Origin: a virus
Lineage: Duplodnaviria > Heunggongvirae > Uroviricota > Caudoviricetes
Length of the DNA: 64,000 nucleotides
IMG/VR virus record: IMGVR_UViG_3300005253_000530
Direction: 5' to 3' (one strand)
Below, one piece after another: positions 1,918 to 42,268 of the stretch (positions within the stretch are counted from its first letter, which is position 1; the number at the start of each line of letters is the position of its first letter). Under the pieces are notes generated by a model. That model had not been told where the DNA came from, did not search any database, and was given only the letters and a program-made list of their open reading frames with translations. The position numbers and the translations under genes are program-made.

Positions 1918-1925
1918 TTACATGT

Positions 1926-1999: not shown

Positions 2000-2007
2000 T
2001 TTATTTA

Positions 2008-2085
2008 TGGTCGGGGCGGTAGGATTCGAACCTACGGCCCTCGCGCTCCAGACGCGATGCTCTGCGCAGACTGAGCTACACCCCG
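2008..2085 (-). tRNA. tRNA-Pro-like (UGG) tandem paralog, genomically encoded CCA, atypical D- and anticodon loops
   Basis: Same anticodon stem and T-arm as the neighbouring Pro gene; loop UCUGGAG (C33); D-loop lacks GG; 3' end CGCCCCG-A-CCA encoded. Confidence 0.5.
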
Positions 2086-7548: not shown

Positions 7549-7700
7549 CCTTGCTGACATGAAAAAGCAATTGGACTTGAACCAATGACCGCTTACTAAG
7601 TATTCTCGCCAATACAATTTCCAACATTAACTTTTCAGCAGCTCTACTCTTCTGAGACTTACACTTTTCCTATATGAACTCTACAATGAGCAGAGTTTTG

Positions 7701-15494: not shown

Positions 15495-15764
15495 GTTATT
15501 TCTCCTTATTTTAATAGGTTAAAATCCCTTTCTACTCCACTCCTCCTATTTAGCTACCACCGTGTCTATACTGACAGGCGCTGTGACAACCGCTGTTATC
15601 TCGTCTTTTGCTGGGTTTGCAGTCATGGTGACAAAAGACTGACTATTAGGAAAGCTATAGCGTGCCTCAATATACTCTGCTATAGCCTGCAAGATATTAT
15701 CGTTCGTCAAAGTAAATATAGATTTCTCTTTATTGCCTAATAGTTCCATGTTATTCCCCCCTTG

Positions 15765-17108
15765 TTATATTATGAAATTACTATTACCAACCCATGTGTG
15801 CTTCAATCCTTTCTCCCTTTCATTCAGCACATTCTGAGGTAATCTAACTACCTCTATAAATTTATCTATATAATCAGCATACTCTCTGTATGTCTGTAAT
15901 GACCTGTATCTTGACTTTAGCTCATCGAAATAACTTTTTCTGAATTCTATTTCCCATTTATGTAATATATTTTGCATAGCTCCAGAGCTAGAAGTAGTAT
16001 TAAATGCCTTTGTAATTTCTATATTCTTCCATTGATCAAAAGACATATCGAAGAAAGTCAAATCAGTGTGGGCATACCAATCATCGGTCTCTTGGTGTTC
16101 TTCGGTCATAATCAAAGAATGCTTAAAATTACCATCTTCTAAGGCTCTAAAATATGCGTGAGCTATAGCTTTTACTGTGCCTATGACTATTCTGGCCAGT
16201 TCTGGATGAGTTAACCACTCACCACTTAAAGTACGATACTCTAATCTATTATGATCAGTCTTGTGATCTCCAAAGCGACCAAATGACTTTCTACGCTTCA
16301 TTCCATTCTTTTTACCATCAAGCTTCATCATTGGTACAGCTACATAATCGTCTAATATTCTTTGTAGACACGCGTACACTGCGTGTGAGTAATTACTACC
16401 AAATGAACTTATCTTTTGAGCTAAATTTGCTGGTGTCCCTAAATGTATGTGGCCTCCAACAGGCCAGTCCCTTCGACTGTTGTCAGGATCCGCACCCGAT
16501 TCATGCCCAGAATGGTTACACCCACCGACCCATTCATACAGAGCTATTAACTTTGTATTAGGGTGATTTGTTAGTATGCCATGTATATTACTTACAAAAT
16601 CTTCTACTAGTATCGCAGGCTTTGGCCTTAGTTCAGCCAATGGCCCGTCTGATCCGAGCTCGTCATTATGACTCAGATTATTTACTTTTGATGCATACAT
16701 TATGTTACCATCCTTATTAAATAACATAAACTCAGGGTCACCGCCTACTACTGTGTCCTCAACTGTATCTGCTAACCATATATTCTCTTTACTCCCGCTA
16801 CCGTTCTTACAGACATAGCTAAATATAGTAGAAGTTACAAAACCAACCCTTTCAAAATCGTCAGCACTCATAGATTCTTTAGCTTTTTTTAGATCTGAAG
16901 AGTAAGCTTGGAATATTTCGAGACTTTTACTTCTGTTTATTCGTCCATTTGTATCAGTATTAGGCCATACCTCTACAACTTTTTCATCAGCTAGCCCAAG
17001 ATTTTCTCTAGCTTTTACTCCTAGTCTGATCAGACCGTTTTCATTCCTATCATTCTTTCTGTTGGAATCCATTCGGTCTGATATGACTAATATTAATGGA
17101 GCTTTCAT
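15765..17108 (-). CDS. GCS2/glutamine-synthetase-like carboxylate-amine ligase (amidoligase), paralog B
   Basis: GGDPEFMLFNKDGN ... GSDGPLAELRPKP ... GGHIHLG; shared with 22726..23928 and 41042..42268. Confidence 0.6.
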   Translation of the reverse strand: MKAPLILVISDRMDSNRKNDRNENGLIRLGVKARENLGLADEKVVEVWPNTDTNGRINRSKSLEIFQAYSSDLKKAKESMSADDFERVGFVTSTIFSYVCKNGSGSKENIWLADTVEDTVVGGDPEFMLFNKDGNIMYASKVNNLSHNDELGSDGPLAELRPKPAILVEDFVSNIHGILTNHPNTKLIALYEWVGGCNHSGHESGADPDNSRRDWPVGGHIHLGTPANLAQKISSFGSNYSHAVYACLQRILDDYVAVPMMKLDGKKNGMKRRKSFGRFGDHKTDHNRLEYRTLSGEWLTHPELARIVIGTVKAIAHAYFRALEDGNFKHSLIMTEEHQETDDWYAHTDLTFFDMSFDQWKNIEITKAFNTTSSSGAMQNILHKWEIEFRKSYFDELKSRYRSLQTYREYADYIDKFIEVVRLPQNVLNEREKGLKHTWVGNSNFII

Positions 17109-17120
17109 ACGTCATCCCTC

Positions 17121-18944
17121 CTAACTTTTTGTTTCTTTTGCTTTCTTAATGACTTCTTTTACCTCTTTAATCATTTCTTGTTCTCGGGTATTAAATACTT
17201 CTGCTATTTTATCCATGTTCACTGAAATGTCACTTCCAGACACTGCGTTAAACAGTCTGGCTCTTGCACTAAGATTTTGGCCCTTTCCATTGCTAATACT
17301 TGAAGTCACATCATAGAATTTTGCAAGTGCTAGAACCATAGACTTCAATCCAGCTATATGACTTTCTCTGCGTTTAGATTTCTCGTCGTCAGCTGAAGAT
17401 GGGCCTTCTGATTTTTTCATAGCTGTTTCATATCCGGCCATGAACCCGTCCTTCCAGTTGATATTGAATGCTCTGTTGGCTACCATAACTATGCCAAGCT
17501 GTTCGGCTTTCTTCTCATTTTGAATATCTATAGCAGAAATAAGATCTTCCATGTTCCCATATCCCTTTTTATCTATAGGCATGTCAGTATATGCATTAGT
17601 AGCAGCTTCTATAATCTCTTTGGGATATTGCTTCATGTTAACTTCAGTTACTTTGATATCTTTTTCATCTATATCTATGACTTCATCATCTGATCCTTTA
17701 TTCTCAGTATATGTTGTTTTGTCATCGATATCCACCGAAGAGTCACTATCTTTTTGCTCAATAGTATCCTTGTCTCCATCATCAGTGTCTGATTTTTTAT
17801 TAGCTATTATCATTGCTGTTGTAGTAGATCCAGTGGTTGTATTCTTTACTGTTTTGACCTCGTCAGTATCTACAGATATAGCAGCAGACTCGTCATCTTG
17901 TATTTCAGTATCTCCAATTTTTACTACATACTTTTTCGTAATCTTATCAAATACTCTACGTGTTGGTTCTTCCTTTTTCTCATCGGGTTTATTATAAGAG
18001 TACGGCTTACCGTAATTTTTACCGGTGCTATATGTCGTAGCAGTTGTAGCTATCCATATTTTGCTACTTCGCTCTATTTTACTCCACTCACCTAGGTCAT
18101 CAATGGTAGTATCTTCTGTAACCTGCTGAGTCAAATCAAATATCATAGCGGAATCATCTGGCAGACTTTTCTTTTCAACAAGCTTTTTATTGAGAAAGGT
18201 TGGTAGATCCGAACCACAAAGCTCAGGATAATATCTAGGCCATCTTACATATCTGAAATGTATTTTATTCCAGAACTTTTCTTCAGATATTATTAGTAAT
18301 ATACCGTATTCTTTCAGCAGCACAAATTCTACAGGGCGACTATCACGAAATATTGGTACTTGATATGGGTTATCAGCATTGAACAGGGAGATTGCAAACT
18401 GACCATCTAGTCTATTTACTATATTTTGTATCATATTCATAGTAAATGGCTCTTTGCCACAGTTCGTGTAATGATCAAATAGCCTGAATATTGCTTCACT
18501 GTCTACTTTTCCATCTCGTTTGCATCCAAGCTTTTTGAATATTTCATCTGGATTCCTAATCACTCCATTATGAATGCCTATTAAATTACCAATTTTGATA
18601 GGGTGATTATTTTCATTGTCTTCTTTATCACCGGCTGTAGCAGCTCGACAATGTCCCAGAAAAATTCTACTAGGGGCTTTATGTTCTCTCCACACTTTTA
18701 ACAGGCTGCCGTACCATTCTTTCGATTCACCAAACATAGATAAGTAATCAGTGGCTCGTTGGCCTCTTTTTAATCCCATATATTTGCCATCATCGAACAA
18801 TATGGCTGCTCCTGTGGCATCTTTGCCTCTTTCTTCGGTGGCTATCAGCAGTTCGGTTGTGAAGTATTGCATTACCCCTTGCCTTACGATTTCGTCCTTT
18901 TCGCTTAATTTGCCGAATGCCAGTGCAACTACTATTCCGCACAT
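17121..18944 (-). CDS. class-II glutamine amidotransferase (Ntn, N-terminal Cys) with long low-complexity C-terminal extension
   Basis: MCGIVVALAFG N-terminus (catalytic Cys2), GHCRAATAG, Gn_AT_II-type core; Thr/Asp/Ser-rich linker then C-terminal domain. Confidence 0.7.
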   Translation of the reverse strand: MCGIVVALAFGKLSEKDEIVRQGVMQYFTTELLIATEERGKDATGAAILFDDGKYMGLKRGQRATDYLSMFGESKEWYGSLLKVWREHKAPSRIFLGHCRAATAGDKEDNENNHPIKIGNLIGIHNGVIRNPDEIFKKLGCKRDGKVDSEAIFRLFDHYTNCGKEPFTMNMIQNIVNRLDGQFAISLFNADNPYQVPIFRDSRPVEFVLLKEYGILLIISEEKFWNKIHFRYVRWPRYYPELCGSDLPTFLNKKLVEKKSLPDDSAMIFDLTQQVTEDTTIDDLGEWSKIERSSKIWIATTATTYSTGKNYGKPYSYNKPDEKKEEPTRRVFDKITKKYVVKIGDTEIQDDESAAISVDTDEVKTVKNTTTGSTTTAMIIANKKSDTDDGDKDTIEQKDSDSSVDIDDKTTYTENKGSDDEVIDIDEKDIKVTEVNMKQYPKEIIEAATNAYTDMPIDKKGYGNMEDLISAIDIQNEKKAEQLGIVMVANRAFNINWKDGFMAGYETAMKKSEGPSSADDEKSKRRESHIAGLKSMVLALAKFYDVTSSISNGKGQNLSARARLFNAVSGSDISVNMDKIAEVFNTREQEMIKEVKEVIKKAKETKS

Positions 18945-18946
18945 AT

Positions 18947-20188
18947 TTATACCTCCTCCTCTTCAAAAAGTTTCGTTTGTAAATAATCCGACCTACCCGT
19001 TACCTTCTCCTTTACGACTTTACTTTTGTTATTTTTGATATTTACATCATTCGGAATTTCTTTTGATATCTTATCCCTAACCAAGCTCATAGCTTTTGAT
19101 GAGCGCATGTCATGTGGTCTACGTATTGCTTCACCATCAATTGTAAACACATTTTCTTTAGATTTAGAAAACACAAATCTATAAGTGGCGGACTTCATTT
19201 TTGAGATTATGTCCTGCCCTTTAATTGACGAGTTTGTAATAAATACTTCCATACATATACCACTGGCTTTTTTAGAGTCAAATATTGGTAATACATCCCC
19301 TAATTCATAAAAGCTTATAGATACAATATCAGTTATTACTTTTACACGGTTGTGAGGATATTGAAAGAAACTTATATGGTGGGGATATGCTTTTGTCAAC
19401 ACACTATAAAAAGAATTTATATCCTCTAACATATACTTCAAGTTAGATGTACCGACTCCTGAAAATGTGTAGTTTATAAATCTATTACTTTGCAAGCGCT
19501 CAGATAATAGATCAGGGAAATTAGAAACATCAGAACTATTATGTACATCAGAAAGCCTATCTAATTCTGTATGTATGCCATTATCAAATATTAAAGGCAA
19601 TGATCCATCTATATAAAATTTTTTTGTATTTGTCGAATGGATGACATAGTCTATTGTAGCATTCCATATACTAAATGGAATAATAACATTTATATTATCT
19701 AAAGAGTTGGATAAAATGCTATTTGCTTTTGCCAAATCCTTTTTAGCTATGTGATATATATCTTTGGCTGTAGACTTCTTAGCTTCAGTGGGTATAGGCT
19801 TTTTAGGCTCAGGCTTTGAATTAGTTATTTTACCTGTAGTTATTTTACCTGTAATTGTTTTATTCGGAAGTCTTTCTTCATCCCCCCTTCCTTCGTAACA
19901 TGATAATCCTTCTACGTAACTGCGGACACCTCTATCACTTGTTGGTGATCTAGGCACAGGTCGACCAGATCCACTAGGTAAAATTGGTACCATTGTTGAC
20001 TTAGATAATTCCCAAGAATTATGTGAATTATTACGGCTAATTATACCATCATATACAACGAATGGTTGTATAATGGCAATACATGGAGTACCTACTGACA
20101 TATCGTCATATGTAGAAGTGGTGATACCGGCTATACAGTTATCTTCTGGATAAATTTCTTGTAAAAATTTTAGTTTCTCTACGTACAT
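18947..20188 (-). CDS. hypothetical protein in amidoligase operon
   Basis: 413-aa ORF, stop/start coupled to neighbours; ITGKITTGKIT short repeat. Confidence 0.5.
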   Translation of the reverse strand: MYVEKLKFLQEIYPEDNCIAGITTSTYDDMSVGTPCIAIIQPFVVYDGIISRNNSHNSWELSKSTMVPILPSGSGRPVPRSPTSDRGVRSYVEGLSCYEGRGDEERLPNKTITGKITTGKITNSKPEPKKPIPTEAKKSTAKDIYHIAKKDLAKANSILSNSLDNINVIIPFSIWNATIDYVIHSTNTKKFYIDGSLPLIFDNGIHTELDRLSDVHNSSDVSNFPDLLSERLQSNRFINYTFSGVGTSNLKYMLEDINSFYSVLTKAYPHHISFFQYPHNRVKVITDIVSISFYELGDVLPIFDSKKASGICMEVFITNSSIKGQDIISKMKSATYRFVFSKSKENVFTIDGEAIRRPHDMRSSKAMSLVRDKISKEIPNDVNIKNNKSKVVKEKVTGRSDYLQTKLFEEEEV

Positions 20189-20200
20189 TTACTACCTCCA

Positions 20201-21130
20201 TTAATATCCATTCATAATACAATTAGAACATACTCCTGCGTTACATTCAGACATCATGTCATATCCTGTATTGCATAGACTGCAATCATGTGCATTACTA
20301 TTACCCCCAATTTCTCTCCGTTTTCCAGCAGACCATGGATGCTTATAGTCGTCATTGTCTAAATCGAATTCTAATATTTTGCCAGTTTCCAGGTCTATTC
20401 TTACCCCGCTCATAGAGATGTCTATACTTTTACTGGTATGTGCAGGGTTTAGCCACTTAGAGTGCTCTAGAGATTCATTTAGTATGAATTTACTAGATGC
20501 AAAAACCATACTTCTTACATTTTTGTATATATATAATATTGCATTGGGATATGATAGTGCATTACTGAATAGAGTCAAATACCTTGGCATATCAGTGTGT
20601 ATAAAAGCACAAGCATATGATCCTGTCATCTCTCCGTGAGCAAGTTTTACTGCTTCAACTATTGTTTTGCCAGTAGAAATATGATAATCTATTAATCTAA
20701 ATATTATTTCACTATCTACTTGCCCCAGTCTGTTTATACAATCTGAATATTTACTAAATAAACTATCATCATTACCCACCATGCCATTATGTACTCCAAT
20801 AACTTTATTAGCTATTATCGGATGGTTGTTTTCATTTAAACGCTGAGTACCTTTAGTTTTTTGTCTTGTGTGCCCTATCATAGCTTTAAAGTTTTTAGCG
20901 CAGTTTATATTTTTTACGACGTCACTATATTCAGTAGTACGCACCAGCTTTGATCCTTTGAAAGCCTCTTTATATACAGAAACTTTTTCTTCTGTCAATA
21001 CACATATACCCGAAGCATCTTTACCTCTTGATTCTGATGCTTTAAGCAAATTATAAGTGGCTTTACGAAATGAATGAGCTTTATCATAAGAATTTGGCCC
21101 ATAGTTTATCAACCCAAATATTCCACACAT
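20201..21130 (-). CDS. class-II glutamine amidotransferase (Ntn, N-terminal Cys), short form
   Basis: MCGIFGLINYG N-terminus, GHTRQKT, NNHP motifs. Confidence 0.7.
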   Translation of the reverse strand: MCGIFGLINYGPNSYDKAHSFRKATYNLLKASESRGKDASGICVLTEEKVSVYKEAFKGSKLVRTTEYSDVVKNINCAKNFKAMIGHTRQKTKGTQRLNENNHPIIANKVIGVHNGMVGNDDSLFSKYSDCINRLGQVDSEIIFRLIDYHISTGKTIVEAVKLAHGEMTGSYACAFIHTDMPRYLTLFSNALSYPNAILYIYKNVRSMVFASSKFILNESLEHSKWLNPAHTSKSIDISMSGVRIDLETGKILEFDLDNDDYKHPWSAGKRREIGGNSNAHDCSLCNTGYDMMSECNAGVCSNCIMNGY

Positions 21131-21143
21131 AAAAGTATTTCTC

Positions 21144-22772
21144 CTATACAGACAACATGCATCCAGTAGAATCCGACCAGATCATTTCGCCTTCTCTCAT
21201 TTTTGTATCTACAAATAATTCAATTTCCTCTTTACTGACTGTATCAGTAAGATCTTCGTCTTCTGATAAGCACTTTTGGACTTCTATTACCCATTCATCA
21301 CAGCTTACGCAGTCATCAATTAGTTTTAGATCGATTATTTCACTCAACTTCACTTCTAATATATCTGTACTCTTTATTTCAACAGCTAGATCCTCTTCTA
21401 TTTCTTTCCATGTTTTTCCATCCATTAAGTGTAAGGAAGCAGGACGTTCGGCTAACTTAATAAGAATATTGTATGCTGGGCCTATCTTCAGTAATATACT
21501 TTTCAATTGATTTACTAGATCAAGGCTTTCTTCTACAAAGTACTGCGTATTGTCCAACAAATGTCTAGTATCACTCATGCGACTACTATCGTTATAATCA
21601 CCGCAGCCATTCAGGATTGTTTCTTTCATAGCCTTAGCCTTCTTCAACCAAGCCTCATCCCCAACTTTCAATAATCCGTATCTGCTTATTTCGACCGCCT
21701 TTATAACAATAGCATAATGTAAACAAGCCAAAGCTGCATAATAGGTGGGACACATAGTTGAATCCGCCTGCCTGAATTCAATATGAAATCTATCTATATC
21801 TCCACCACTAAACCTGGTTTTGTTATAATTGATAAATCCATATTTGTTGCCACCAGCATGTCTAGATACATCTTCAATAACACGCCTCATATCCTTTGTA
21901 ACGGGCGATACATCAAGGATACCTACTCTAAATTTTTCCCAGCGAGTCATGTGTCTGGGGTCACCTAGGGCTATGGTCATCCATGTTAATGCATTCTGAT
22001 ATCTCCTGCATAACTGATGAAAATTTGCAAGAACTATTTGGGGCATAGGTTTTTCTAATTCATTGGCCCCATCACCCTCATAATAACTGGTTAATACGTG
22101 CATATGGGAACCAGTTCTTTCGTTTAAATATCCACCATATTTTTCTACTTTATCCAATATTCTTTTGGACATTGTATAGAATTCCCAGAAGTCTACACGC
22201 CGGCCAACGGTTATAATCTCTACGCCTTTGTCACCAAGTAGAGAACCATCTGTTGTTATACCGACAACACCAGATGGGCCTACCTTACCGTATGTTTTAC
22301 TAGGCTGCAACTCCGTATTCAAATTTTGCCTAATGTGCTTTGGGTCCTTATTTATGTTATACTTTTTAGAACAACTACCACAGTTCTTATCGAAATGATT
22401 ACATGTAAAACACGCACTAATAAAATCCACACAAGTACTACCTATGCATGAGAACTCATATTTATTGCATTTTTTACACTTGTCTGGCTTACATTTTCGG
22501 CTTTGTGCTATACATGTATCATAGCATTTTTCTTTTTGACAGACTGGTGTATTAGTACATTCTTTCCAGCAGCCATCGCCTATACGAGTACAAGGACATT
22601 GTATATTATCACCTTTACAGGATCCTTTTTGATCTGGTAAGTTGAATTCAAATTCAATTCCAACTTTCAACAGTTTCCGCATTGATTCTTTCCAATATCT
22701 AGCCTCTGCTGCACCTAGTGCTGGTTTAGACGGATGACTGTAGAACTGCCATTTCTCTCTGTTGTTCCTCAT
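21144..22772 (-). CDS. Cys-rich GS/GCS2-like amidoligase-family protein
   Basis: N-terminal LLKVGIEFEFNL (GxExE strand of carboxylate-amine ligases) followed by a Cys-rich insert (about 25 Cys). Confidence 0.45.
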   Translation of the reverse strand: MRNNREKWQFYSHPSKPALGAAEARYWKESMRKLLKVGIEFEFNLPDQKGSCKGDNIQCPCTRIGDGCWKECTNTPVCQKEKCYDTCIAQSRKCKPDKCKKCNKYEFSCIGSTCVDFISACFTCNHFDKNCGSCSKKYNINKDPKHIRQNLNTELQPSKTYGKVGPSGVVGITTDGSLLGDKGVEIITVGRRVDFWEFYTMSKRILDKVEKYGGYLNERTGSHMHVLTSYYEGDGANELEKPMPQIVLANFHQLCRRYQNALTWMTIALGDPRHMTRWEKFRVGILDVSPVTKDMRRVIEDVSRHAGGNKYGFINYNKTRFSGGDIDRFHIEFRQADSTMCPTYYAALACLHYAIVIKAVEISRYGLLKVGDEAWLKKAKAMKETILNGCGDYNDSSRMSDTRHLLDNTQYFVEESLDLVNQLKSILLKIGPAYNILIKLAERPASLHLMDGKTWKEIEEDLAVEIKSTDILEVKLSEIIDLKLIDDCVSCDEWVIEVQKCLSEDEDLTDTVSKEEIELFVDTKMREGEMIWSDSTGCMLSV

Positions 22773-23928
22773 TACCTAGCAACCTCCAATTCAACTCTAT
22801 ATTTTCATTAAACCTTGCTTTTTTATGAGCGTAATTCAATATGTAGTCAAAATAATTTATTATTTGTGTCTGGTTATCTTTGAATCCTATCATCATAGAC
22901 AGATCGTTTAGTATTGCATCTATGTGTGACATGGACTTATTCATTGTTTCTGAAACTACGCTGTCATGTACTACATTTTCATTCGGTAAATTAGGGTATA
23001 GTTGTCTAAGATCTTTGTAATCTCTAAACCATATCTTTTTCCTAAATCTATCAGAATGAGCACTTAATCTACTCAGTATATCTTTCATAACAACTATACT
23101 TATAGACAAAATGCCAGATGAAAGTATAGGGTGCCGTAATAAGTGGCCTCCTGGTACTCTATACTCTAATGTCATCATGTCATGCCTGAAATCTCCAGGT
23201 TTACCATAATGACTGAATCTCTTAGATCGTCGATAGAAATCCTCGTTACCTTCAGGTAATACAGCTGGTATTCCAACGTAGTAATCCAGGACACTTACTA
23301 TATTTCCAAGTAAGGCGTGCATGTTTTGTAACATAAATTGTGGTAGTCCAAAATGTATGTGGTATCCAGCAGATGCATTATTACAATGGGAAGAAGCTTC
23401 CATTCTTATGTCTTGTTTTCTAAATAATACTCTGTTACTAATATGCTCATGTGCTCTGGCCATTAGTTTATACAATTCCTCTGATACACCTTTTTCCTTT
23501 AAACTTGGCCGTGGTCTTATCTCTGCCAGGCCACAATCACTCCCAACTTCTCCATAATGAGGAAAAAAGTGGCTTGCTGATACATTGAATCCGGTAGTCT
23601 TATTCACCAGAAAAAATTCCGGGTCACACCCTATAAGTATATCATCGGCTGGTTTTATACTTGATATTAGATTTAGATCCAATAAATCATGTGTGTCTGT
23701 ATTTACATATACGCTTTCATTGTCTTCAAAGGCGTCAATTTCATAAGCTGTTGATACTTGTAGTGCTATTGGTTCTCCATCTTTGCCGTTTAGGCATAAA
23801 AAAAGTCCGGGCTCTAACCCGAACTCTTCTCTCAATTTTAGGGGTATTCGTATCAACCTATTTTCAATAGACCCCAACGGAGATGTATCTTTCCCCATAG
23901 ATGGAGATACTTTTATCTTGAACCTCAT
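22726..23928 (-). CDS. GCS2/GS-like carboxylate-amine ligase (amidoligase), paralog A
   Basis: IGCDPEFFLVNKTTG ... GSDCGLAEIRPRP ... AGYHIHFG. Confidence 0.6.
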   Translation of the reverse strand: MRFKIKVSPSMGKDTSPLGSIENRLIRIPLKLREEFGLEPGLFLCLNGKDGEPIALQVSTAYEIDAFEDNESVYVNTDTHDLLDLNLISSIKPADDILIGCDPEFFLVNKTTGFNVSASHFFPHYGEVGSDCGLAEIRPRPSLKEKGVSEELYKLMARAHEHISNRVLFRKQDIRMEASSHCNNASAGYHIHFGLPQFMLQNMHALLGNIVSVLDYYVGIPAVLPEGNEDFYRRSKRFSHYGKPGDFRHDMMTLEYRVPGGHLLRHPILSSGILSISIVVMKDILSRLSAHSDRFRKKIWFRDYKDLRQLYPNLPNENVVHDSVVSETMNKSMSHIDAILNDLSMMIGFKDNQTQIINYFDYILNYAHKKARFNENIELNWRLLGNEEQQREMAVLQSSV

Positions 23929-26019: not shown

Positions 26020-26679
26020 TTATTTTGCTAGATAAGCATCTATTTGCTTCCCCCACTCTTCATCATTATCATTATAAAAGAATGCGGTAGTTACTTTCTT
26101 TCTCCTTTTTATTATCTTACTTTTTTTATGGTTTGTTGTAGCATAAAGTCCCGCTAATTTTAAAGAATTTCCAAATTTTTTACGCATTTTCCCGACTGTT
26201 TTCTTCACTTTTTTACGATCTTTTTTATCTTTTATGAGCTTGAGAGGATCATGCACCCTAATACTATATTCATCTCTTCCTACCATAAAGGTCTCTATAC
26301 CAGAGTACGATGCATATATCTGCATTCGTGTTTTGGGAGCAAGCTTAGCTCCACATTGTCCTATAAATGATTCATAACAAGCAATTTGGACTGATATATT
26401 TTGACATGGCCCACTACATCGCGGGCATGGGATTATACTATTGCAAAACGTTCCACAGAAGCCAGCATAAGTAAATAAATCCTTAAACTTCTTTTGATTA
26501 GTGAACCTAAGACCAATCATATACTGCATTTTTTTCCAGAAATCTTCTTTGTCTTTAGCATACTGAGCTAAGCAGAATTTAGGATCAATAGGTGGTCTAC
26601 ACATTGTGCATTTCACACATATATTCTCTGTGAATGCTTTTTTATAAAAATTCTGTCTTTCTTGGTGCCAATTATCCAT
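26020..26679 (-). CDS. Cys-rich hypothetical protein
   Basis: CVKCTMC, FCGTFC, CPRCSGPC clusters; basic C-terminus. Confidence 0.45.
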   Translation of the reverse strand: MDNWHQERQNFYKKAFTENICVKCTMCRPPIDPKFCLAQYAKDKEDFWKKMQYMIGLRFTNQKKFKDLFTYAGFCGTFCNSIIPCPRCSGPCQNISVQIACYESFIGQCGAKLAPKTRMQIYASYSGIETFMVGRDEYSIRVHDPLKLIKDKKDRKKVKKTVGKMRKKFGNSLKLAGLYATTNHKKSKIIKRRKKVTTAFFYNDNDEEWGKQIDAYLAK

Positions 26680-27748: not shown

Positions 27749-28312
27749 TCATCTTCTATATCTATCCTCCGGCTTTATGAAATTAGGATTGTCGTCCTTC
27801 CTTGCCATTATTTCTTTTACCTGATCAAAAGAAAGCGGGAAGAAATTGGTATTATCCACACTAATACAATGCCTTTTACCTGGTAAATTCAAGTCTTTGT
27901 GAGAATGCGCATATAGATGCCAACTGTTATAATGAGATCGAGCCCATGTATGCATGGCGTAATGACAGACTACAAGAAATTCATCATTCTTCTTGTCCAT
28001 CATATTTGACCATATATCATGGAAATGGCTGGCACGAGCGGACATCCACTTATCGTGATCTCCTCTTAAGAATATTTGACGACCATTTAGTCTAGAAATG
28101 TAACTATATGCATTATCATTGGAGTTTCTTGCTGCATATTGTTTAAACCAACAAAAATCGCCGGCATTGATAACTGTGTCATCCTTGCCTACAACCTCAT
28201 TGTGTTTGGCTATCATATCTTCATCCATTTCATTTTCATTTTTATATGGCCTATCACAATGTTCTATAATACGCCCATGGCCATAATGCTGGTCTGCAGT
28301 AAAAAAATACAT
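27749..28312 (-). CDS. calcineurin-like metallophosphoesterase
   Basis: Motifs DQHYGH, INAGDF, RGDHD. Confidence 0.7.
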   Translation of the reverse strand: MYFFTADQHYGHGRIIEHCDRPYKNENEMDEDMIAKHNEVVGKDDTVINAGDFCWFKQYAARNSNDNAYSYISRLNGRQIFLRGDHDKWMSARASHFHDIWSNMMDKKNDEFLVVCHYAMHTWARSHYNSWHLYAHSHKDLNLPGKRHCISVDNTNFFPLSFDQVKEIMARKDDNPNFIKPEDRYRR

Positions 28313-28644
28313 TATCTTGTAGAGTCTCCTTCATCCATTAATTTTAATATTTCATCCCCAGTTTCTCTTACCTTTATTTTGTTTCTATGTTGCCATCTTG
28401 CAGTGATTACTATTGTTCGATTACCATAGTTATCTTCCCTCTCAGGAATTATCTCCACTATATCTCTTCTGTTTATTACACGCCAGTCAATCCTATTATT
28501 ATACCCGGCTATATGTAAAGTTATCATATCATCTCTTAAATTCATTATCTTTCCCCTGTAAAAAAGTTTGGGTGCCCAGGAAGAATACATGAGAAACCTG
28601 GACACCCTTTGAAAGGAGGTATTACACCTAATGGTGTTCGCAGA

Positions 28645-28775
28645 CCCCTATATTAAAGTTAGGTGGTGTGGGTGGTAGGATTCAAACCTACGACCTTTCA
28701 GAACGCCTTTCCGTAGACGGCTGAGTGCTCCACTTATGAGCTACACCCCTTGTTCACCTAACTTTAATATAGGGG
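28645..28775. repeat. perfect 21-bp inverted repeat (cccctatattaaagttaggtg / cacctaactttaatatagggg) bracketing the tRNA-like gene
   Basis: Arms at 28645..28665 and 28755..28775, exact reverse complements. Confidence 0.85.
28664..28750 (-). tRNA. tRNA-like gene with encoded CCA and extra arm, anticodon not resolvable; enclosed by a perfect 21-bp inverted repeat
   Basis: D-arm TAGCTCATAAGTGGAGC with U8, T-arm GTAGG-TTTGAAT-CCTAC, 3' CACCCAC-A-CCA; acceptor pairs only 5 of 7. Confidence 0.35.
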
Positions 28776-29147
28776 CCTACTTTAAGAGGAAAAGTACACC
28801 TACTAATATTATAGAATAAAGTAGGAATTTTATTAACTAATAGGTCTATTATCTGTCCATATCCCACACATCTTTTTTGTCTTTCGGATTAACAGGTACT
28901 TTGACTAATACCGGGTAATCTGAGGAAGGATCCAACATTCGCTCAACCAGTTCTTCTGGACTAAATCTTTCTGTGGGATGAGAATAAAGTTCTATTTTAC
29001 CATCCTCACTTTCTTCTATATCACGGTGAAAGTAGCATTTTACCGCCTCTAGTGGATCTGTCCACGCACCATCTATACTTGTTTCAAACACTATCAAATA
29101 TATGTGGTCCATATTTGCTTTCCTTTCTATATGAAAATTTGTAAAAT

Positions 29148-29512: not shown

Positions 29513-32500
29513 TTAGTCTCCTTTAATTAGAATTTTGTCTATGTATGCTGCCAACTCTTCGTATGCGGCTCGCATGTTTTCAGTTGTCAGCACATTACGA
29601 ACTTTTATTTTCTTAGCCTTGATCCTATCTAATACATCCTCTACATCTTCTCTTTTCGACTTCAAGATTCTGAACAGCATGAAGCTGGGAAGATCCAACG
29701 GTGCAGATCGTAAATGGTCCAAGAGATTAAACGGGCCTAACAACGCCCTACTTGCGAAATATATCTTATTTTTCCTCCTTACAATGAAATTGATTATCTT
29801 GCTTCCTCTTCCTTCTTTTGCGGCTTGGTGAAAACTGACCAAATCCCATATCCTTAGACTGGCAGCCTCTAGAAGTATCAAATCGCATAGCAATTGGCTT
29901 GCCTCCCTGTCGAAACCCAGCCCAACCATCTTTTCTGTATCTGCGACACATATAGCATCTGTTGCCTCTTCCTGTAGAGATTTGATACCATGTTTTTGCC
30001 TAAAAACAGTATTACCAAGAAAATCCAGTAGGACTTCTAGATGTACATGACTTTCTGCTTCCGTATAAGGGACACAGCGCTCAACTATCCGCATTAGATT
30101 ATAAGCCAATGCAATTACCGGTCCAGTATGACTTTTTACACCAGTAGCTTTCCTTACAAGCTCCGCATGCTCCTCGTTAGTAGGTTTAGGAAATTTACAT
30201 ATCTGAAAATCGTCCAAAGTCATTTCCCTATGCTTAGGAACTTTCTTTGCATTCATACTCTCAATGATCCTATTACATAGATCGTTTGGTTCTCTCATCT
30301 CTTTGCGTAGTAATTCAATAGACGCAGGGTTATGAAAGGACGCTATAAATAGGCTGTCACCATCAAAATCAAGATTTTCAGAAGTAAGACTGTTTCCACT
30401 AACCCTTATGACATATTTACACTGTGGATCATTTGTGACTCTTACATATTGAGGACGTATGGACATGAATCCAAGACAAGGAAATCTTTCCACTAATACC
30501 ACATCCCCCGTCTTCACCTTTAGTGCTCGTGCCATATCACTATGAATTTCTATTGTATTTTTGGGCAAATTATCCACAACACAATGCTTCAGTTCAGTAG
30601 GATAGTCGTCCTCGTTGTCGGCTAGGGCAGCAGTTGCTCTACTGGAATAAGGATATCTTACTGCCATACCATATGTGCTTAGCTCCCCGTTCTTTCCACC
30701 CATCATCCTGGATACATTCTGAAAGTATCTTGTAACAGCTCTCATCAGTTCATTCTGATCATTTACATCTCCTGTTTCTATAAATTTATGAGAAGCTATT
30801 ACTATATGATTGACATATAGCCCAACGGTATTCAGTCCCCATTTACCAGACGGATGACGCCAGCACCTTCGAGATAGAGCATTGGGTATAAATATTGTAT
30901 TATAAATATACTCTATCTTCTGGCCCGGATCTAATATTTCTTGTGGTAGACCCATTGTATATGATTCTACATCTTCTTTGTCCACGATAGCCTGAAAGTA
31001 ACTTGGTATACGCAGTATAAATCCTTCTGGCATATATTCGTCATCAACTATAGTACCTTTGATATTAGCCAAATCGTGAAATATACCCTGGGTTGTATCC
31101 ACGCATGCCACATCTTTGGCATCAATTACTGGAATGCCAGCATCTATTTCACCCTTAGCAGACCTGAGAATGTCTATTCCGTCCTGCAACATGGATACTC
31201 CCTGCGAATAGGACATTATTTCTTCCAGCAGTGGGTTACCTTGGCCGAATCTGGTAGTCAGAGCCTTCATCTCTACATGACTGAACTTTAGCCCAGATGT
31301 CCTCAGTTCTCTGTTATTGGTTAGCTCTGTCCTATCTTCTTCCCACAACTGATCTTCCGGGTCCTTAGTTACTCCCCAAAACATCTTCCCCACTATTGCC
31401 TGAGATTCTCCAAAATATGTATCGATCATCGAAGTTCCATCTTTTGGGAATCCTTTGGATTCTAACGCTGCTTCAAGTTTAGATTTTTCCACCAAAATAT
31501 CATCTTTGACCACGATAGGAACATTTCCCTCATTTAAGTTATTTGCGAGAGCCTCAAGAATTTGACCAAAGTTCTTACGCTTATTGATAGATGTGCCAGA
31601 CATCATTACATCTATTTGCACTTCTTCACCGGTTCTTGGATCCACTTGATGCCCCAGGTCCATAAAGCGTATAATGCCTTTATTACCATGTAAATTAGAG
31701 AATTTACTACCATCCCTTAGAAATCTCTTCCCCTTCACAGTTACCACTACGAGCTTTATTTGTTCGCCATTCAGATCAGTTACAGTTCTGTTTACCTTTG
31801 TTATCTTTGCCTCATCACAACGCATATCCATCATAACTGGCTGACCATCTTTTGAAAATCCAAGCACATCCCCAGTTCTTACCTCTTTACCAGCCTTTGC
31901 AAGTATGTGATCACCATAGATGGCAAATCTCTTTGTTACTGTGTGTGATAACCCTCTGTGCCGGTTGTCTGCAAGAATTTGATCCTCGAAGTTTAGAACT
32001 GTATCGATAATAGCAGTTACCATGTTCCAGCCTTTTCTATCGATGCCTTTCTCAACCAGCTTTTGTATGGACTCAGACCTGATATTTGGTAACTCGTCGC
32101 CTTTCATCCCAAGAGTAGAATATAGATTTCTCTGGGGATTATGGTATTGTCCAAACGGAGTTATATCTCGTAGATCTGTGGTCATTAGATAGTTTTTATC
32201 AGACAACACACCGTCAGATAATCCTATAGCTGTCCACCCAAATTTACCGTAATATCTTTTGTTCTTGTCGACCTGGTACTCCAGTTTCTCGTTGGGATCA
32301 GATATATACTCGAAAACTGGGTCTATAATAATAAGCCGATGATTCATCGCCCAGCTATTCATATCTGTCTCATGTAGTGGCATAATGTTTATAACACTGT
32401 TTAACAGCCTCTGAGTCTCACTCACCATATACACCACTCGATCCCTGTCAAAGGACTTTACGATCTTGTGTACCATCGGACTACCACTCATTTGCGACGG

Positions 32501-33004
32501 TATAATTACATTTACATCTTCACAAAGTAGGCTTTCAACGATTTGATGAAAATTCATCTTTTTCTGCTCCCGCTCCAACCAGAAATCACACAATACTCTA
32601 ACGACATCGTTGTTCTTCAGAAATTCTATACCGTTCTTGCCTACCGTTGGAAGCGGTATTTGTAGACATTTTTCCACATCCTCTCGACTAAACTTAATCC
32701 ACAGAACATAATCAATTACTTCGGTAGTCATGATTATGCCGGCTTTAGTTATACTATTTATACGGTTAAATTCGGCTGCGATGTTGACCAGTAATAGGTC
32801 TGTACGTCTATCGAGAGTTTCCTGATCACAAATCTCCCTCTTTGCATGAGAGAGGAAAGCTTCATGCCGAGCAATCTCCTCCTTTAGCTGTATAACTCTC
32901 TCAAGCCTTTTTATTTCATTGTTTAACTTCTGAACACGGATATCCTTCTCGAGCTGGGATATCTCTGTATTCAGCGCCTTCATCATTTCTGTGTTATTAC
33001 TCAT
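29513..33004 (-). CDS. single-polypeptide two-barrel (multisubunit-type) DNA-dependent RNA polymerase, beta-like N-half + beta'-like C-half
   Basis: beta DPBB motifs RDGSKFSNLHGNKGII...NFGQILEA (cf. RpoB GRHGNKGV...NIGQILE); beta' motifs RFPCLGFMSIRPQYVRV...ENLDFDGDSLFIASFHNPASIELL (cf. RpoC NADFDGDQMAVHVPL); DFDGD encoded at about 30355..30378. Confidence 0.8.
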   Translation of the reverse strand: MSNNTEMMKALNTEISQLEKDIRVQKLNNEIKRLERVIQLKEEIARHEAFLSHAKREICDQETLDRRTDLLLVNIAAEFNRINSITKAGIIMTTEVIDYVLWIKFSREDVEKCLQIPLPTVGKNGIEFLKNNDVVRVLCDFWLEREQKKMNFHQIVESLLCEDVNVIIPSQMSGSPMVHKIVKSFDRDRVVYMVSETQRLLNSVINIMPLHETDMNSWAMNHRLIIIDPVFEYISDPNEKLEYQVDKNKRYYGKFGWTAIGLSDGVLSDKNYLMTTDLRDITPFGQYHNPQRNLYSTLGMKGDELPNIRSESIQKLVEKGIDRKGWNMVTAIIDTVLNFEDQILADNRHRGLSHTVTKRFAIYGDHILAKAGKEVRTGDVLGFSKDGQPVMMDMRCDEAKITKVNRTVTDLNGEQIKLVVVTVKGKRFLRDGSKFSNLHGNKGIIRFMDLGHQVDPRTGEEVQIDVMMSGTSINKRKNFGQILEALANNLNEGNVPIVVKDDILVEKSKLEAALESKGFPKDGTSMIDTYFGESQAIVGKMFWGVTKDPEDQLWEEDRTELTNNRELRTSGLKFSHVEMKALTTRFGQGNPLLEEIMSYSQGVSMLQDGIDILRSAKGEIDAGIPVIDAKDVACVDTTQGIFHDLANIKGTIVDDEYMPEGFILRIPSYFQAIVDKEDVESYTMGLPQEILDPGQKIEYIYNTIFIPNALSRRCWRHPSGKWGLNTVGLYVNHIVIASHKFIETGDVNDQNELMRAVTRYFQNVSRMMGGKNGELSTYGMAVRYPYSSRATAALADNEDDYPTELKHCVVDNLPKNTIEIHSDMARALKVKTGDVVLVERFPCLGFMSIRPQYVRVTNDPQCKYVIRVSGNSLTSENLDFDGDSLFIASFHNPASIELLRKEMREPNDLCNRIIESMNAKKVPKHREMTLDDFQICKFPKPTNEEHAELVRKATGVKSHTGPVIALAYNLMRIVERCVPYTEAESHVHLEVLLDFLGNTVFRQKHGIKSLQEEATDAICVADTEKMVGLGFDREASQLLCDLILLEAASLRIWDLVSFHQAAKEGRGSKIINFIVRRKNKIYFASRALLGPFNLLDHLRSAPLDLPSFMLFRILKSKREDVEDVLDRIKAKKIKVRNVLTTENMRAAYEELAAYIDKILIKGD

Positions 33005-38217: not shown

Positions 38218-39015
38218 TTATTCCCCTGTTTTCTTTTCGACTAAAATCTTGTCTTCCTCGTACTTAATTCTTTTCTGAAAATTACTGGACACATCCGTGA
38301 TTAATGCTGATTGGATTTTCTTGAGTTCTCCCAATAGAACCTGCACATTATCAAACTGACCATCAGCGTGCAGCTTATTGTAGATATTCAGTACAAGAGT
38401 AGACGGCTCGATGTTATCGCGATCAGAAGCATATATAGCTCTTGATGTAGCTTCTACTTGATCGCAGAGCATCAGAATTAATGATTCCAAGGAATCTGGC
38501 CTACCAGTTTTATATCTAAACGCATTAATATTAGCTTTAGGGTCTTTAGACTTTGCTTTCTCAAATATAGATTGTACTGGACAGGTTCCATGGTGCTGGC
38601 TTACGATTCTTATTACATCATCAGGAAAACCATTTGCTACTAGAATAGTGACGGTGTCAGACACATGTCTTGTGATAAGCACGTAACTAACCCATGGTGG
38701 TAAGCCATCATGTATATTGTCTTTGCCTTGATTTTCTGTATATGATTCCGGAAACCACATTTTGCCAATATCATGGTATAGAGCGGACATTTGCAATTTA
38801 TGTGGATCTTTATCTACAGCTGCACAAACATTTTCTACTGAACCCATCAGAGATTGGTCATGTTTATGACTTCCCGGAGCTTTCTCTCGAAACTCTTTCA
38901 ATAAGTGAAATTTAGAATCCATAGGCCCAATTTTCTTGTCTTCTTTATCCTCATACACTTCTTGATCTGCTTCTACCATGGGACTTCCTCCTGCTATATC
39001 TTTGTACAAAGTCAT
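38218..39015 (-). CDS. HD-domain metal-dependent phosphohydrolase
   Basis: HD motif LYHDIGKMW and downstream His/Asp residues. Confidence 0.65.
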   Translation of the reverse strand: MTLYKDIAGGSPMVEADQEVYEDKEDKKIGPMDSKFHLLKEFREKAPGSHKHDQSLMGSVENVCAAVDKDPHKLQMSALYHDIGKMWFPESYTENQGKDNIHDGLPPWVSYVLITRHVSDTVTILVANGFPDDVIRIVSQHHGTCPVQSIFEKAKSKDPKANINAFRYKTGRPDSLESLILMLCDQVEATSRAIYASDRDNIEPSTLVLNIYNKLHADGQFDNVQVLLGELKKIQSALITDVSSNFQKRIKYEEDKILVEKKTGE

Positions 39016-41041: not shown

Positions 41042-42268
41042 TTAGTACAATTCTTTCAAAAGACTTGCTTGAAATTTCATAAAATCCTTATTATCCTTTA
41101 GCTTTTGATATGATCCCATTACCATGCCGCGGCTTGACCGAAAGTCGTTGTTTACACACCATTCCTTTTTTAGATCTTTATCAATTACACTATATACACC
41201 GTTTTCACGCATGTATTCAAATGAAGCCAATGAATGTACAATTTGACCTTCTGGGCCTTGTGGCGGATTTTCCCACGGCGAATGCCCTTCCTCTACGTAA
41301 CTTTGTATAGATCCTCTTAAAGATCCTATATGTAAAGGGTTACATGAAGACAGCCCTGTAGATGCAAGGTAGGGTCGCAGATTTTTCCATATTTTATCCG
41401 CTGTGATAATATCGCTCTCATCGATAACTCCACGAATAGTTTCTTCATCGAATCCTACGGCTTCTCTATAAGTTTCGTCCATGTTAATAGTCACCATTGA
41501 CCATGCCATTCTTGCCAATCCATATACTAATGATACGAACATTGGCGATTTTAGCCACCAGCAACTGGGAGTTCTGTACTCTATGCCATAAGGAGTCGGT
41601 CTAAAACATCCGGCTTTACCATATTTTGATCTTCTCAGTTTAGATCCATTGTCGTTATCAAGGCGCATTGTAGGTATGGTAAGTAGTAAATCCAAGAATC
41701 GTATAAGCCGAATATGCCCGTCTTCTGTTTTTGCAAGCTTGTACTCCGGCTGATCCTTCGATAGATACGGTGAAGACAATCCAAGGTGTATGTGACCACC
41801 GGCGTATCTATGTGGATGCTCAGAGGCGTCCATTTCTGGAGTGTTTGTGGTACATGTATAAGCATTGAAATCTGGTTCGCATCCAAATACACGTGCTTCT
41901 GGATCAGCTTTGTTTATAACTGACTCGCGGATTTTTTCAGCTGGAGAAAGAATAATTTGATGATTCTTTGGTATTCTATTATAAACTTCTCTCCATACCT
42001 TTTCGATATTACCTGCGAAGTATTCTCTACACGACTGATGAGCTACAGCCATCTCGGCCTGTATACCATCGAAAAACAGTCTGCTAAGTTTACCGTCCCT
42101 GGCTTGTACTTTTATAGGATCATTTTTGCTGGGGAAGAAATTATCAGCACTTCGCACCCGGCCTTTCTCATCACCTATAAAAAACTCTGGGTCTCCACCT
42201 ATCCTGGGTAAATAATTGACTTTGTATATTCTGCGTCCTATTTCCTTATCTATCTCCGAAATCTTCAT
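41042..42268 (-). CDS. GCS2/GS-like carboxylate-amine ligase (amidoligase), paralog C
   Basis: IGGDPEFFIGDEKG ... RYAGGHIHLG. Confidence 0.6.
   Translation of the reverse strand: MKISEIDKEIGRRIYKVNYLPRIGGDPEFFIGDEKGRVRSADNFFPSKNDPIKVQARDGKLSRLFFDGIQAEMAVAHQSCREYFAGNIEKVWREVYNRIPKNHQIILSPAEKIRESVINKADPEARVFGCEPDFNAYTCTTNTPEMDASEHPHRYAGGHIHLGLSSPYLSKDQPEYKLAKTEDGHIRLIRFLDLLLTIPTMRLDNDNGSKLRRSKYGKAGCFRPTPYGIEYRTPSCWWLKSPMFVSLVYGLARMAWSMVTINMDETYREAVGFDEETIRGVIDESDIITADKIWKNLRPYLASTGLSSCNPLHIGSLRGSIQSYVEEGHSPWENPPQGPEGQIVHSLASFEYMRENGVYSVIDKDLKKEWCVNNDFRSSRGMVMGSYQKLKDNKDFMKFQASLLKELY

Follow-up and report, generated by a model that had tools for sequence, protein, structure and literature searches.

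A non-decoding, tRNA-like RNA element closed by a long helix in an uncultured jumbo-type phage

Introduction

A stretch of 64,000 nucleotides from a phage (Caudoviricetes; IMG/VR record IMGVR_UViG_3300005253_000530), called the window in the following, carries between positions 28640 and 28780 of its minus strand an element in which the two arms of a long inverted repeat enclose a tRNA-like core, and in this core an irregular hairpin takes the place of the anticodon arm. The element is a non-decoding RNA. The best explanation, to be held with moderate confidence, is that it represents a small stand-alone gene for a structured RNA which stems from the proline tRNA with the anticodon UGG (tRNA-Pro(UGG)) of the phage and would be processed by RNase III to a tRNA-shaped scaffold or decoy. 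The element is located in the spacer between an open reading frame (ORF) of 87 amino acids (28849-29112) and one of 77 amino acids (28312-28545), and all neighbouring genes are encoded on the minus strand.

Architecture of the element

From 5' to 3' the following parts can be distinguished.

28755..28780, minus strand: 5' (leader) strand of the closing helix, GUAGGCCCCUAUAUUAAAGUUAGGUG, from the inverted-repeat search and the minimum free energy (MFE) fold
28749..28754, minus strand: 5' side of an internal loop, AACAAG, containing the unpaired tRNA positions 1-2, from the MFE fold
28667..28750, minus strand: tRNA-like core, positions 1-73, from its score with the Rfam family RF00005, its near-identity to tRNA-Pro and the cloverleaf fold of the isolated core
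28744-28750 / 28668-28674, minus strand: acceptor stem with five of seven pairs formed, A1.C72 and G2.A71 being mismatched
28727-28741, minus strand: D arm, D stem GCUC/GAGC, preceded by U8-A9
28697..28725, minus strand: extended arm of 29 nt in place of the anticodon arm, CUCAG-C-CGUCU-ACGGAA-AGGCG-UU-CUGAA, from alignment and fold
28692-28696, minus strand: variable loop AGGUC (5 nt)
28675-28691, minus strand: T arm GUAGG-UUUGAAU-CCUAC
28666-28664, minus strand: encoded CCA after A73, with C75-A76 paired inside the closing helix
28640..28665, minus strand: 3' (trailer) strand of the closing helix, CACCUAACUUUAAUAUAGGGGUCUGC, from the inverted-repeat search and the MFE fold

The tRNA character of the core is documented by a match of 28667-28750 (minus strand) to RF00005 with 33.7 bits (gathering score 29; E = 0.003 for the whole window), which was obtained with permissive filters only; ARAGORN and the default filters of Rfam reported seven ordinary tRNAs at 397-3731 and none at the element. 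The alignment to RF00005 bore out what a first-pass annotation had read from the sequence, namely U8 and the GCUC/GAGC stem of the D arm, a canonical T arm and an acceptor stem with five of seven pairs. In the same alignment 18 nt occupy the anticodon loop, where the model expects 6. About 35 nt separate the D and T arms and no anticodon was returned by the covariance search, in agreement with the earlier remark that a clean anticodon arm is lacking. These residues fold to an extended arm of four to five base pairs, a 1x2 internal loop, five further base pairs and the hexaloop ACGGAA. A likeness of this apex to the sarcin-ricin loop or to boxB was considered and found unconvincing by eye, and the apex accepts an insertion of 4 nt in one of the relatives described below.

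The arms of the inverted repeat comprise 24 nt each (28642-28665 and 28755-28778), are 96% complementary and are separated by a spacer of 89 nt. Complementarity is uninterrupted over 21 nt (28645-28665 versus 28755-28775), and these exact inverted 21-mers, to which the first-pass annotation had drawn attention, occur in the window as these two arms only, where shuffles expect none. Among all inverted repeats of the window with arms at most 300 nt apart this one is the longest. Folding of the 149-nt RNA from 28784 to 28636 of the minus strand yielded -70.1 kcal/mol, corresponding to z = -8.9 against dinucleotide shuffles, and the predicted structure is the long stem clamping a tRNA-like cloverleaf for which this folding had been proposed. 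It consists of a 26-bp closing helix, a 6x4 internal loop (AACAAG / ACAC), a 5-bp acceptor stem, the D arm, the T arm and the 'anticodon' arm, and the core forms a cloverleaf also when folded alone. The overlap of the repeat with the CCA was found as described, C75-A76 lying inside the 3' arm.

A leader-trailer duplex of at least about 20 bp, as is expected of an RNase III processing stem, is present in the window (26 bp) and in the relative L096 (23 bp). The suggestion that the stem serves as a bidirectional terminator was not supported, as no U-run follows it on either strand (on the minus strand it is followed by GCGAACACC, on the plus strand by ACUUUAAGAGG) and a separate, conserved terminator is located some 35 nt downstream. 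A generic repeat or terminator was ruled out, the arms being unique in the window, in the 104 loci fetched for comparison and in IMG/VR. A resemblance of GTTAGGT/ACCTAAC to the R'/R'' boxes of an integron attC site concerns the wrong end of the stem and the wrong order and was deemed a coincidence. When all loci were scanned for comparable long inverted repeats, a single further one was found, which is unrelated to the element. This is a perfect 21-bp repeat (TTTTTAGCTTTATTTTTTTCA) in locus L029 (7528-7548 / 7639-7659), with a 90-nt spacer and thus nearly the same geometry; rich in A/T and devoid of tRNA-like content, it falls within the coding sequence for the lysine-rich C-terminus of a homologue of the window ORF at 26020-26679.

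Relationship to the proline tRNA of the phage

2008..2085, minus strand: tRNA-Pro(UGG) with encoded CCA, the closest relative and likely parent of the core, from the covariance match and alignment

The window contains seven tRNA genes at 397-3731 of the minus strand, for Thr, Leu, Phe, Pro (two), and Glu (two). With a covariance model of the whole element the best matches other than the element itself were the two genes for tRNA-Pro(UGG), with 31.3 bits (2010-2089) and 28.6 bits (1925-2002). The element and the tRNA-Pro at 2008-2085 have in common the string GGGGUG-UA-GCUC-A (GGGGUGUAGCUCA), GAGC-A, A26, A73, the encoded CCA, which is missing from the other six tRNA genes of the window, and the T-arm region C-GUAGG-UU(C/U)GAAU-CCUAC-C, i.e., CGUAGGUU(C/U)GAAUCCUACC. 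Near-identity to this tRNA extends over the acceptor, the D arm and the T arm, so that the element is probably its paralogue; in the simplest history tRNA-Pro was duplicated and the copy then received a different anticodon arm. Where the tRNA has the anticodon arm UCGCG-UCUGGAG-CGCGA, the element has its 29-nt hairpin without an anticodon. It differs further by the loss of the pairs 1-72 and 2-71 in the long type described below, by C56 being changed to U, by a shorter D loop, and by ends which are closed by a long helix. The D loop of the tRNA-Pro at 2008-2085, for its part, lacks the usual GG.

An origin from a host tRNA or attachment site was not supported by scans of the GTDB species genomes, in which a 20-mer of the hairpin was absent and a 22-mer of the T arm occurred in one unrelated 3' fragment of a tRNA. 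The D-arm pattern of the element retrieved from IMG/VR just two unrelated tRNA-like genes, in the jumbo-phage loci L011 (503-576, minus strand) and L012 (about 1700-1780, minus strand). These genes share the D arm GUAGCUCAAAAGUGGAGCA with the element, have the anticodon loop UUUACAU and an aberrant T loop, UGCAAAA, and are not called by ARAGORN.

Natural variants and distribution

Relatives were gathered via homologues of the RNA polymerase, of the 87-amino acid ORF and of the SSB protein encoded in the window, by contig look-ups and with covariance model R1; the loci are numbered with the prefix L. In the same population six contigs carry the element unchanged or, in L003, with two loop substitutions. 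Further copies were found in L010 (identical to L013, L099 and L100), L093, L101 (identical to L102), L096 and L104. There are seven distinct element sequences, five of a long type which includes the window, and two of a short type (L096 and L104). The long type is defined by a 26-bp stem, the internal loop and ACA-CCA. In the short type the arms comprise only CCCCUAUAUAGG / CCUAUAUAGGGG, the internal loop, the discriminator and the CCA are missing, and the acceptor stem runs directly into the closing helix to form one duplex of 20-23 bp. The encoded CCA, by which the first-pass annotation had characterized the element, is therefore confirmed for the window and the long type and is not a conserved feature.

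The leader strand 28755..28780 is the same in every long-type copy, and its basal 14 nt are common to the short-type copies and even to L008, which has no element; likewise the part UAGGGGUCUGCGAACACCA of the trailer is unchanged at all loci including L008. The 5' side of the internal loop has an insertion of 1 nt in L101. The apical loop of the extended arm is enlarged from 6 to 10 nt by a 4-nt insertion in L096, and in L104 a C of the apex is changed to U. The pairs 1-72 and 2-71 are open in the long type and formed in the short type.

The cassette is located after the 87-amino acid ORF in the window and in L010, and directly after the SSB gene in L101, L096 and L104. Several close relatives are devoid of it. 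In L008 and L009 one arm is left as an 11-bp hairpin with the junction at a TAGG microhomology, as expected from a deletion across the palindrome; in L094 the 87-amino acid ORF is kept and about 300 nt between TTC repeats are lost; and in L007 and L097/L098 other small ORFs are found at this position. A functional link to the 87-amino acid ORF had been suspected from their co-occurrence in the window and L010 and their joint absence in L007 and L008. It was rejected because the two also occur separately, the ORF alone in L094 and the element alone in L096, L101 and L104.

Searches beyond this group of phages gave few matches. Among 80 metagenome loci of the polymerase family (40-90% identity, about 1.1 Mb) covariance models detected the element in L013 only and in no distant relative, and models R1 and R2, run on about 1.1-1.2 Mb comprising these 80 loci and other relatives, returned only ordinary tRNAs besides L010 (identical to L013). 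An 18-mer of the arm, a 20-mer of the hairpin and a 26-mer of T arm and acceptor were all absent from IMG/VR, and blastn of the region gave no nucleotide match among the INPHARED phages. Across the window and the 104 fetched loci the arm 18-mer occurs at this one locus only. Judged by these sequence comparisons, the element is confined to one narrow clade, where it sits in a mosaic hot spot and moves as a cassette.

Loss of decoding ability

A functional tRNA needs a 7-bp acceptor stem and a free discriminator and 3' end, and neither type of the element provides them. In the long type five of seven acceptor pairs are formed and C75-A76 is buried, and in the short type, which has no discriminator or CCA, acceptor stem and closing helix merge into one duplex of 20-23 bp. 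As both ends are sealed in a leader-trailer duplex of 20-26 bp, neither aminoacylation nor codon reading is possible. A standard tRNA was ruled out by the silence of ARAGORN and Rfam at default settings and by the missing anticodon loop; the covariance search gave no standard anticodon and the repeat proved not to be a generic one, which were the two observations on which the first-pass annotation had made its reading depend. ARAGORN at standard stringency made no call at the element whether introns were allowed or not, its mode for transfer-messenger RNA (tmRNA) was empty, and Rfam gave no tmRNA match.

It is very improbable that the element nevertheless decodes as a true tRNA, be it one whose anticodon loop harbours a short intron or a class II-like tRNA-Asp(GUC), with maturation by RNase III, RNase P and splicing. 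Such a tRNA would account for the Rfam score above the gathering threshold and for the A73-CCA of the long type, and ARAGORN with lowered threshold and introns allowed did call a tRNA-Asp(GUC) for the L096 copy. This call is confined to L096 and is regarded as an artefact, as it uses an alternative stem provided by the private 4-nt insertion and has C33 and U37. When all excisions possible in the loop region, which comprises 19 nt or, in L096, 23 nt, were enumerated for the seven variants, none gave a 7-nt loop having both U33 and a purine at position 37. A bulge-helix-bulge motif (two 3-nt bulges with 4 bp between) is also missing, the predicted arm having a 1x2 internal loop and a terminal hexaloop and no 3-4-3 arrangement, and with these two results an intron-containing tRNA was ruled out. 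The short type, moreover, has no discriminator, no CCA, and no single-stranded 5' leader for RNase P.

Conservation of the structure

In the seven variants 97.5% of the pair cells hold standard pairs, as compared to 38-49% when the 3' partners were slid by one to three columns. When columns were shuffled (n = 500), the number of cells with two-sided changes and the covariation score of the real alignment were reached by none of the 500 shuffles and the number of pairs with a two-sided change by 18; the count of further pair types did not stand out, since 308 of the 500 shuffles reached it. One-sided changes are G-C to G.U at 3-70 and 4-69, U-A to U.G at 6-67 and 50-64, and C.A to U-A at 27-43. 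The strongest sign of selection on the helix is that the long and the short architecture are both fully paired despite length changes in both arms. The residues by which D and T arms are identified, U8, A14, U54-A58, and G53-C61, are intact in all variants, and the extended arm belongs to the best conserved parts of the element, with its 20 stem nucleotides being the same in six of seven variants and carrying one substitution in L104. Between the window and L010 the element is 96.4% identical, the genes for the polymerase, SSB and the 87-amino acid protein are 80-84% identical, and the upstream spacer is 76% identical. In L101 the SSB is only 79% identical, yet the cassette including the spacer is nearly identical.

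As far as can be told from the alignment, conserved are the cloverleaf core, the extended arm and the closing helix, and not conserved are the CCA, the discriminator and the internal loop. Since the latter three are dispensable in the short type, the function cannot depend on a canonical free acceptor end or on maturation by RNase P.

Putative transcription signals around the element

The element is framed by further features, all of them on the minus strand.

28801..28836, minus strand: promoter-like site, -35 TTAATA at 28836-28831, 17-nt spacer, -10 TATAAT at 28813-28808, with 10 of 12 consensus matches
28624..28637, minus strand: small hairpin ACACC-AUUA-GGUGU, directly 3' of the closing helix, from the fold of the whole intergenic RNA
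28611..28621, minus strand: unpaired tract UACCUCCUUUC resembling an anti-Shine-Dalgarno sequence, between the small hairpin and the terminator, from sequence and fold
28560..28607, minus strand: intrinsic terminator with the stem strands GGGUGUCCAGG and CCUGGGCACCC, a 16-nt loop, and then AAACUUUUUU, an 11-bp hairpin and U-run from the fold

The motif T(A/G)TAATATTAGTA(A/G)G is found upstream of every copy of the element (aligned for the window, L101, L010, L096 and L104), and the promoter-like motif is not recurrent, with one exact occurrence in the window. The small hairpin is kept in the window, L008, L096 and L104 and the UACCUCCUUUC tract in L008, L096 and L104. Read on the opposite strand this tract is a strong GGAGG followed by the ATG of a 15-codon ORF which enters the element, and a 15-residue gene was annotated by JGI in L004; this ORF is probably not a real gene.

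The terminator, some 35 nt downstream of the stem, closes the cassette ahead of the 77-amino acid ORF. It is overlooked by a simple terminator scan because its loop is larger than 8 nt. Pairing of its stem is kept in relatives, with GCCUAGG/CCUAGGC in L007 and GGGCGUCUAGG/CCUAGGCGCCC in L096 where the window has GUCCAGG/CCUGGGC. Terminators ahead of the corresponding ORF of 77 or 79 amino acids are located at L007:9331-9380, L008:4284-4332 and L096:1159-1204, and in L096 an extra hairpin precedes it. Downstream of the element the terminator or its start is found in the window, L096 and L104, the sequence diverges in L010, and in L101 the contig ends. At L010:8075-8140 and L093:600-670 the sequence after the element is replaced by AAGGAG and an ATG, a hydrophobic mini-ORF of 18 codons (MKRLKFWLSVRLIAWLIS), and then an ORF of 125 amino acids. 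This replacement marks a recombination breakpoint 17 nt past the closing helix.

Proposed origin and function

The preferred explanation starts from a duplication of the phage's own tRNA-Pro(UGG), in which the anticodon arm would have been exchanged for the conserved irregular hairpin of 29 nt, while the acceptor-proximal pairs, the D arm, the 5-nt variable loop and the T arm of the tRNA body were kept. Transcription of the minus strand would either start at the TATAAT-like box, some 27 nt ahead of the stem, and give a separate RNA of about 240 nt, or arrive by read-through from the operon of RNA polymerase and SSB, whose transcript would then contain the element in its 3' part; in both cases it would stop at the terminator 28560-28607. 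Since a near-perfect duplex of at least 20 bp is a typical substrate of bacterial RNase III, the duplex is most likely a processing stem, and cleavage would free a compact, stable, tRNA-shaped RNA on a helical stub. In the weakest step of the proposal the tRNA body might act as a nuclease-resistant scaffold or mimic which shows the hairpin or the elbow to a partner, and candidates for the partner are a host factor recognizing tRNA, for example a tRNA-targeting defence nuclease, or the tRNA-repair enzymes of the phage. The role of the element would then be that of an accessory 'RNA moron' outside the translation apparatus. The presence of tRNA-repair genes, the variable accessory spot and the repeated loss together make a tRNA-centred conflict with the host the most plausible function, though this is speculation. 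Of the uses considered in the first-pass annotation, the processing or precursor stem (with its duplex of 20-26 bp) and the tRNA-like decoy for nucleases are thus viable and have become part of this explanation, with cleavage and function as its conjectural components. A bolder version is possible but doubtful. It takes the element for the founding member of an undescribed class of tRNA-derived, RNase III-excised phage 'RNA morons', in which an intact elbow on a double-stranded stalk would display a dedicated hairpin. Such an RNA would inhibit a tRNA-targeting defence nuclease of the host or divert it as a decoy which cannot be cleaved, or it would serve the phage's own repair enzymes as an adaptor in the manner of a Y RNA; in both cases it would belong to anti-defence or RNA repair, as an RNA-based cofactor, and not to translation.

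Several points weigh against the RNase III-processed scaffold or decoy. Only the anatomy is observed, and we infer all the steps of expression, processing and binding from it. The -35 element is not conserved in L010 or L096, so that the upstream site can be regarded only as a putative promoter, and the RNase III step presupposes a host that possesses the enzyme. Genuine two-sided covariation occurs only in the closing helix and there amounts to essentially one event, the difference between the long and the short type. Two changes break pairs, A5.C68 in L010 and L093 and U.G to U.U in the upper stem of the extended arm in L104; as the D stem is invariant and the sole change in the extended arm is this pair-breaking one, neither helix is supported by covariation. 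The high identity between lineages may in part come from recent recombination of the cassette rather than from selection. Finally, the element is missing from the close relatives L007, L008, L094 and L097 and is therefore dispensable.

The main rival, though an unlikely one, is a functionless, decaying tRNA-Pro pseudogene beside a palindrome, with conservation caused by recombination between co-occurring phages and by hitch-hiking with the hairpin at the base of the stem. It would explain why the acceptor has only five of seven pairs, with one more mismatch in L010 and L093, and why loss is repeated and occurs at microhomology junctions (TAGG in L008, TTC in L094); the base of the stem and its flanks are invariant even in L008, where the tRNA-like part is gone, and the cassette has clearly been swapped between lineages. 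Decay is difficult to reconcile with two architectures in which, despite indels in both arms, the cloverleaf is intact and the closing helix is fully paired over 20 bp or more. Four of the six single-base changes in stems (1-72 and 2-71 excluded) keep or create pairing and two break it. The identity elements of D and T arms are intact throughout, and the hairpin of the replacement arm is well formed, with the same stem sequence in six of seven variants, unlike the product of random decay.

A role at the level of DNA is improbable, be it as a cruciform site for recombination, replication or protein binding or as terminal inverted repeats of the kind known from miniature inverted-repeat transposable elements (MITEs) around a tRNA-derived core. 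The perfect 21-bp inverted repeat with its 89-bp spacer would suit such a role, as would the fact that, in a mosaic hot spot, some close relatives have the element and others do not, and each arm of the short type (CCCCTATATAGGGG) is itself palindromic, so that the arms are also direct repeats. Against it stand the restriction of the arm 18-mer to a single locus and its absence from IMG/VR, the constant position downstream of SSB or the 87-amino acid ORF, the lack of a target-site duplication in the long type, and the complete arm left in the 'empty' L008, which fits a deletion by microhomology rather than an unoccupied insertion site. The core is also conserved and asymmetric, and its RNA-type structure is confined to the strand of gene sense, which scores 169 bits with model R1 as compared to 44 on the other strand. 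A MITE or Correia-like element was rejected on the grounds that, despite the inverted repeats, no genome segment carries more than a single copy, the locus never changes, and the long type is without a target-site duplication. Of the mobile or recombination site suggested by the first-pass annotation, the MITE-like part thus falls away, and the location of a cassette in a recombination-prone, mosaic spot stands. Still less probable is an adaptor of the type of the Y RNA Yrn1 of Deinococcus, in which the helix would bind a ring protein of the Ro60/Rsr type or another one and an effector, for example an exoribonuclease, would be attached to the tRNA-like module, the whole belonging to a toolkit of the phage for RNA repair or RNA decay. 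The topology agrees with Yrn1, Y RNAs are present in phages (22 in that study; PMC4201824), some jumbo phages have TROVE proteins with a tRNA-like partner (PMC7824862), and this phage encodes RlaP and CCA-adding enzymes. No Y RNA family of Rfam was matched even at E<=10, the 5' strand does not contain the bacterial Ro-binding motif GNCGAAN0-1G, and bulges are missing from the helix. A TROVE gene within about 4 kb on the same strand, by which Y RNAs are recognized, was not found among the genes called within 6 kb on either side, nor did Pfam or PHROGs identify a TROVE protein in the 37 window ORFs that were scanned, in a genome of roughly 270 kb.

Comparison with known RNAs

Stems cleaved by RNase III and formed by pairing of leader and trailer occur in ribosomal RNA (rRNA) operons and in transcripts of the phages T4 and T7, and a role of RNase III in the processing of T4 tRNAs was reportedly described by Pragai and Apirion in 1981. 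These stems resemble the element in that a duplex of at least 20 bp surrounds a stable RNA in a longer transcript. The element differs in that it encloses a single tRNA-sized mimic instead of rRNA or a functional tRNA, and in that cleavage is only predicted. Cleavage could not produce a canonical tRNA end in the short type, where acceptor stem and duplex are a single helix.

An engineered 'tRNA scaffold', which carries a chosen hairpin where a tRNA has its anticodon stem-loop and thereby stabilizes it in vivo, is said to have been introduced by Ponchon and Dardel in 2007. Like the element it combines a tRNA body with an intact elbow and a foreign, longer hairpin for the anticodon arm. In contrast to it the element is of natural origin and has its acceptor end shut by a long helix; its hairpin may be a functional module.

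In Yrn1 of Deinococcus radiodurans a helix formed by the ends of the RNA bears a tRNA-like domain with an 'anticodon' arm which has a 6-nt loop (Chen et al. 2014, PMC4201824). Yrn1 and the element are alike in their modular build, the order of D before T arm, the 6-nt loop of the 'anticodon' arm, the lack of decoding, and a probable derivation from tRNA, and the topology of the element corresponds to that of Yrn1 and not to that of the permuted YrlA. Unlike Y RNAs, the element has a perfect helix of 20-26 bp and an 'anticodon' arm of roughly double the usual length.

The element is a new architecture within the known group of tRNA-derived, tRNA-mimicking non-coding RNAs and is so far found in a small clade of uncultured jumbo phages. 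The annotation of tRNAs in phage genomes ignores what the detectors miss. Here, a jumbo phage has recycled a tRNA gene of its own into a non-decoding, constrained RNA with sealed ends. If the element were indeed expressed as a decoy or scaffold, an RNA-based player would be added to the tRNA-centred arms race, in which anticodon and variable-loop nucleases of the host face phage tRNAs, CCA-adding enzymes, RlaP and RNA ligases, and the engineered 'tRNA scaffold' would have a natural counterpart. The two natural architectures and the relatives with natural deletions are ready-made controls for experiments.

The phage genome

The window is a piece of the genome of an uncultured jumbo-type phage from marine sediment. 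Contigs with an identical SSB were found in samples of PRJNA259156, and one protein carries an LCGC14 name. At 29513-33004 (minus strand) it encodes an RNA polymerase of 1163 amino acids which unites a beta part (Rpb2 domain 6) and a beta' part (Rpb1 domain 2) in one polypeptide. A search for homologues of this polymerase gave 382 proteins with E<=1e-10 from sediment and other metagenomes, and a query of IMG/VR with the polymerase protein gave no close relative. Other genes of the window encode an SSB-like protein, a helicase and a phosphoesterase.

Two paralogous nucleotidyltransferases of the CCA-adding or poly(A)-polymerase type with HD domains are encoded at 9423-10790 and 54822-56192 (minus strand). 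In addition, there are an RNA-ligase-associated Pol-beta (RlaP) nucleotidyltransferase and a separate HD protein, which may be assigned in this order to 52313-53200 and 38218-39015 (both minus strand). By their domains these proteins look like a toolkit for the repair of tRNA or RNA ends; no RNA ligase or RtcB was recognized among the window ORFs scanned. In a comparative review of jumbo phages, genes of the tRNA-repair type are read as counter-measures to host RNases (PMC7824862).

A separate group of genes at 14409-23928 and 41042-42268 (minus strand) encodes three paralogues of the COOH-NH2 ligase of phiEco32 type, two proteins with glutamine amidotransferase domains and a RimK-like ATP-grasp protein, interspersed with large ORFs (413 and 542 amino acids) which have no match in Pfam or PHROG. 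This cluster may represent an amidoligase system for a peptide or a metabolite.

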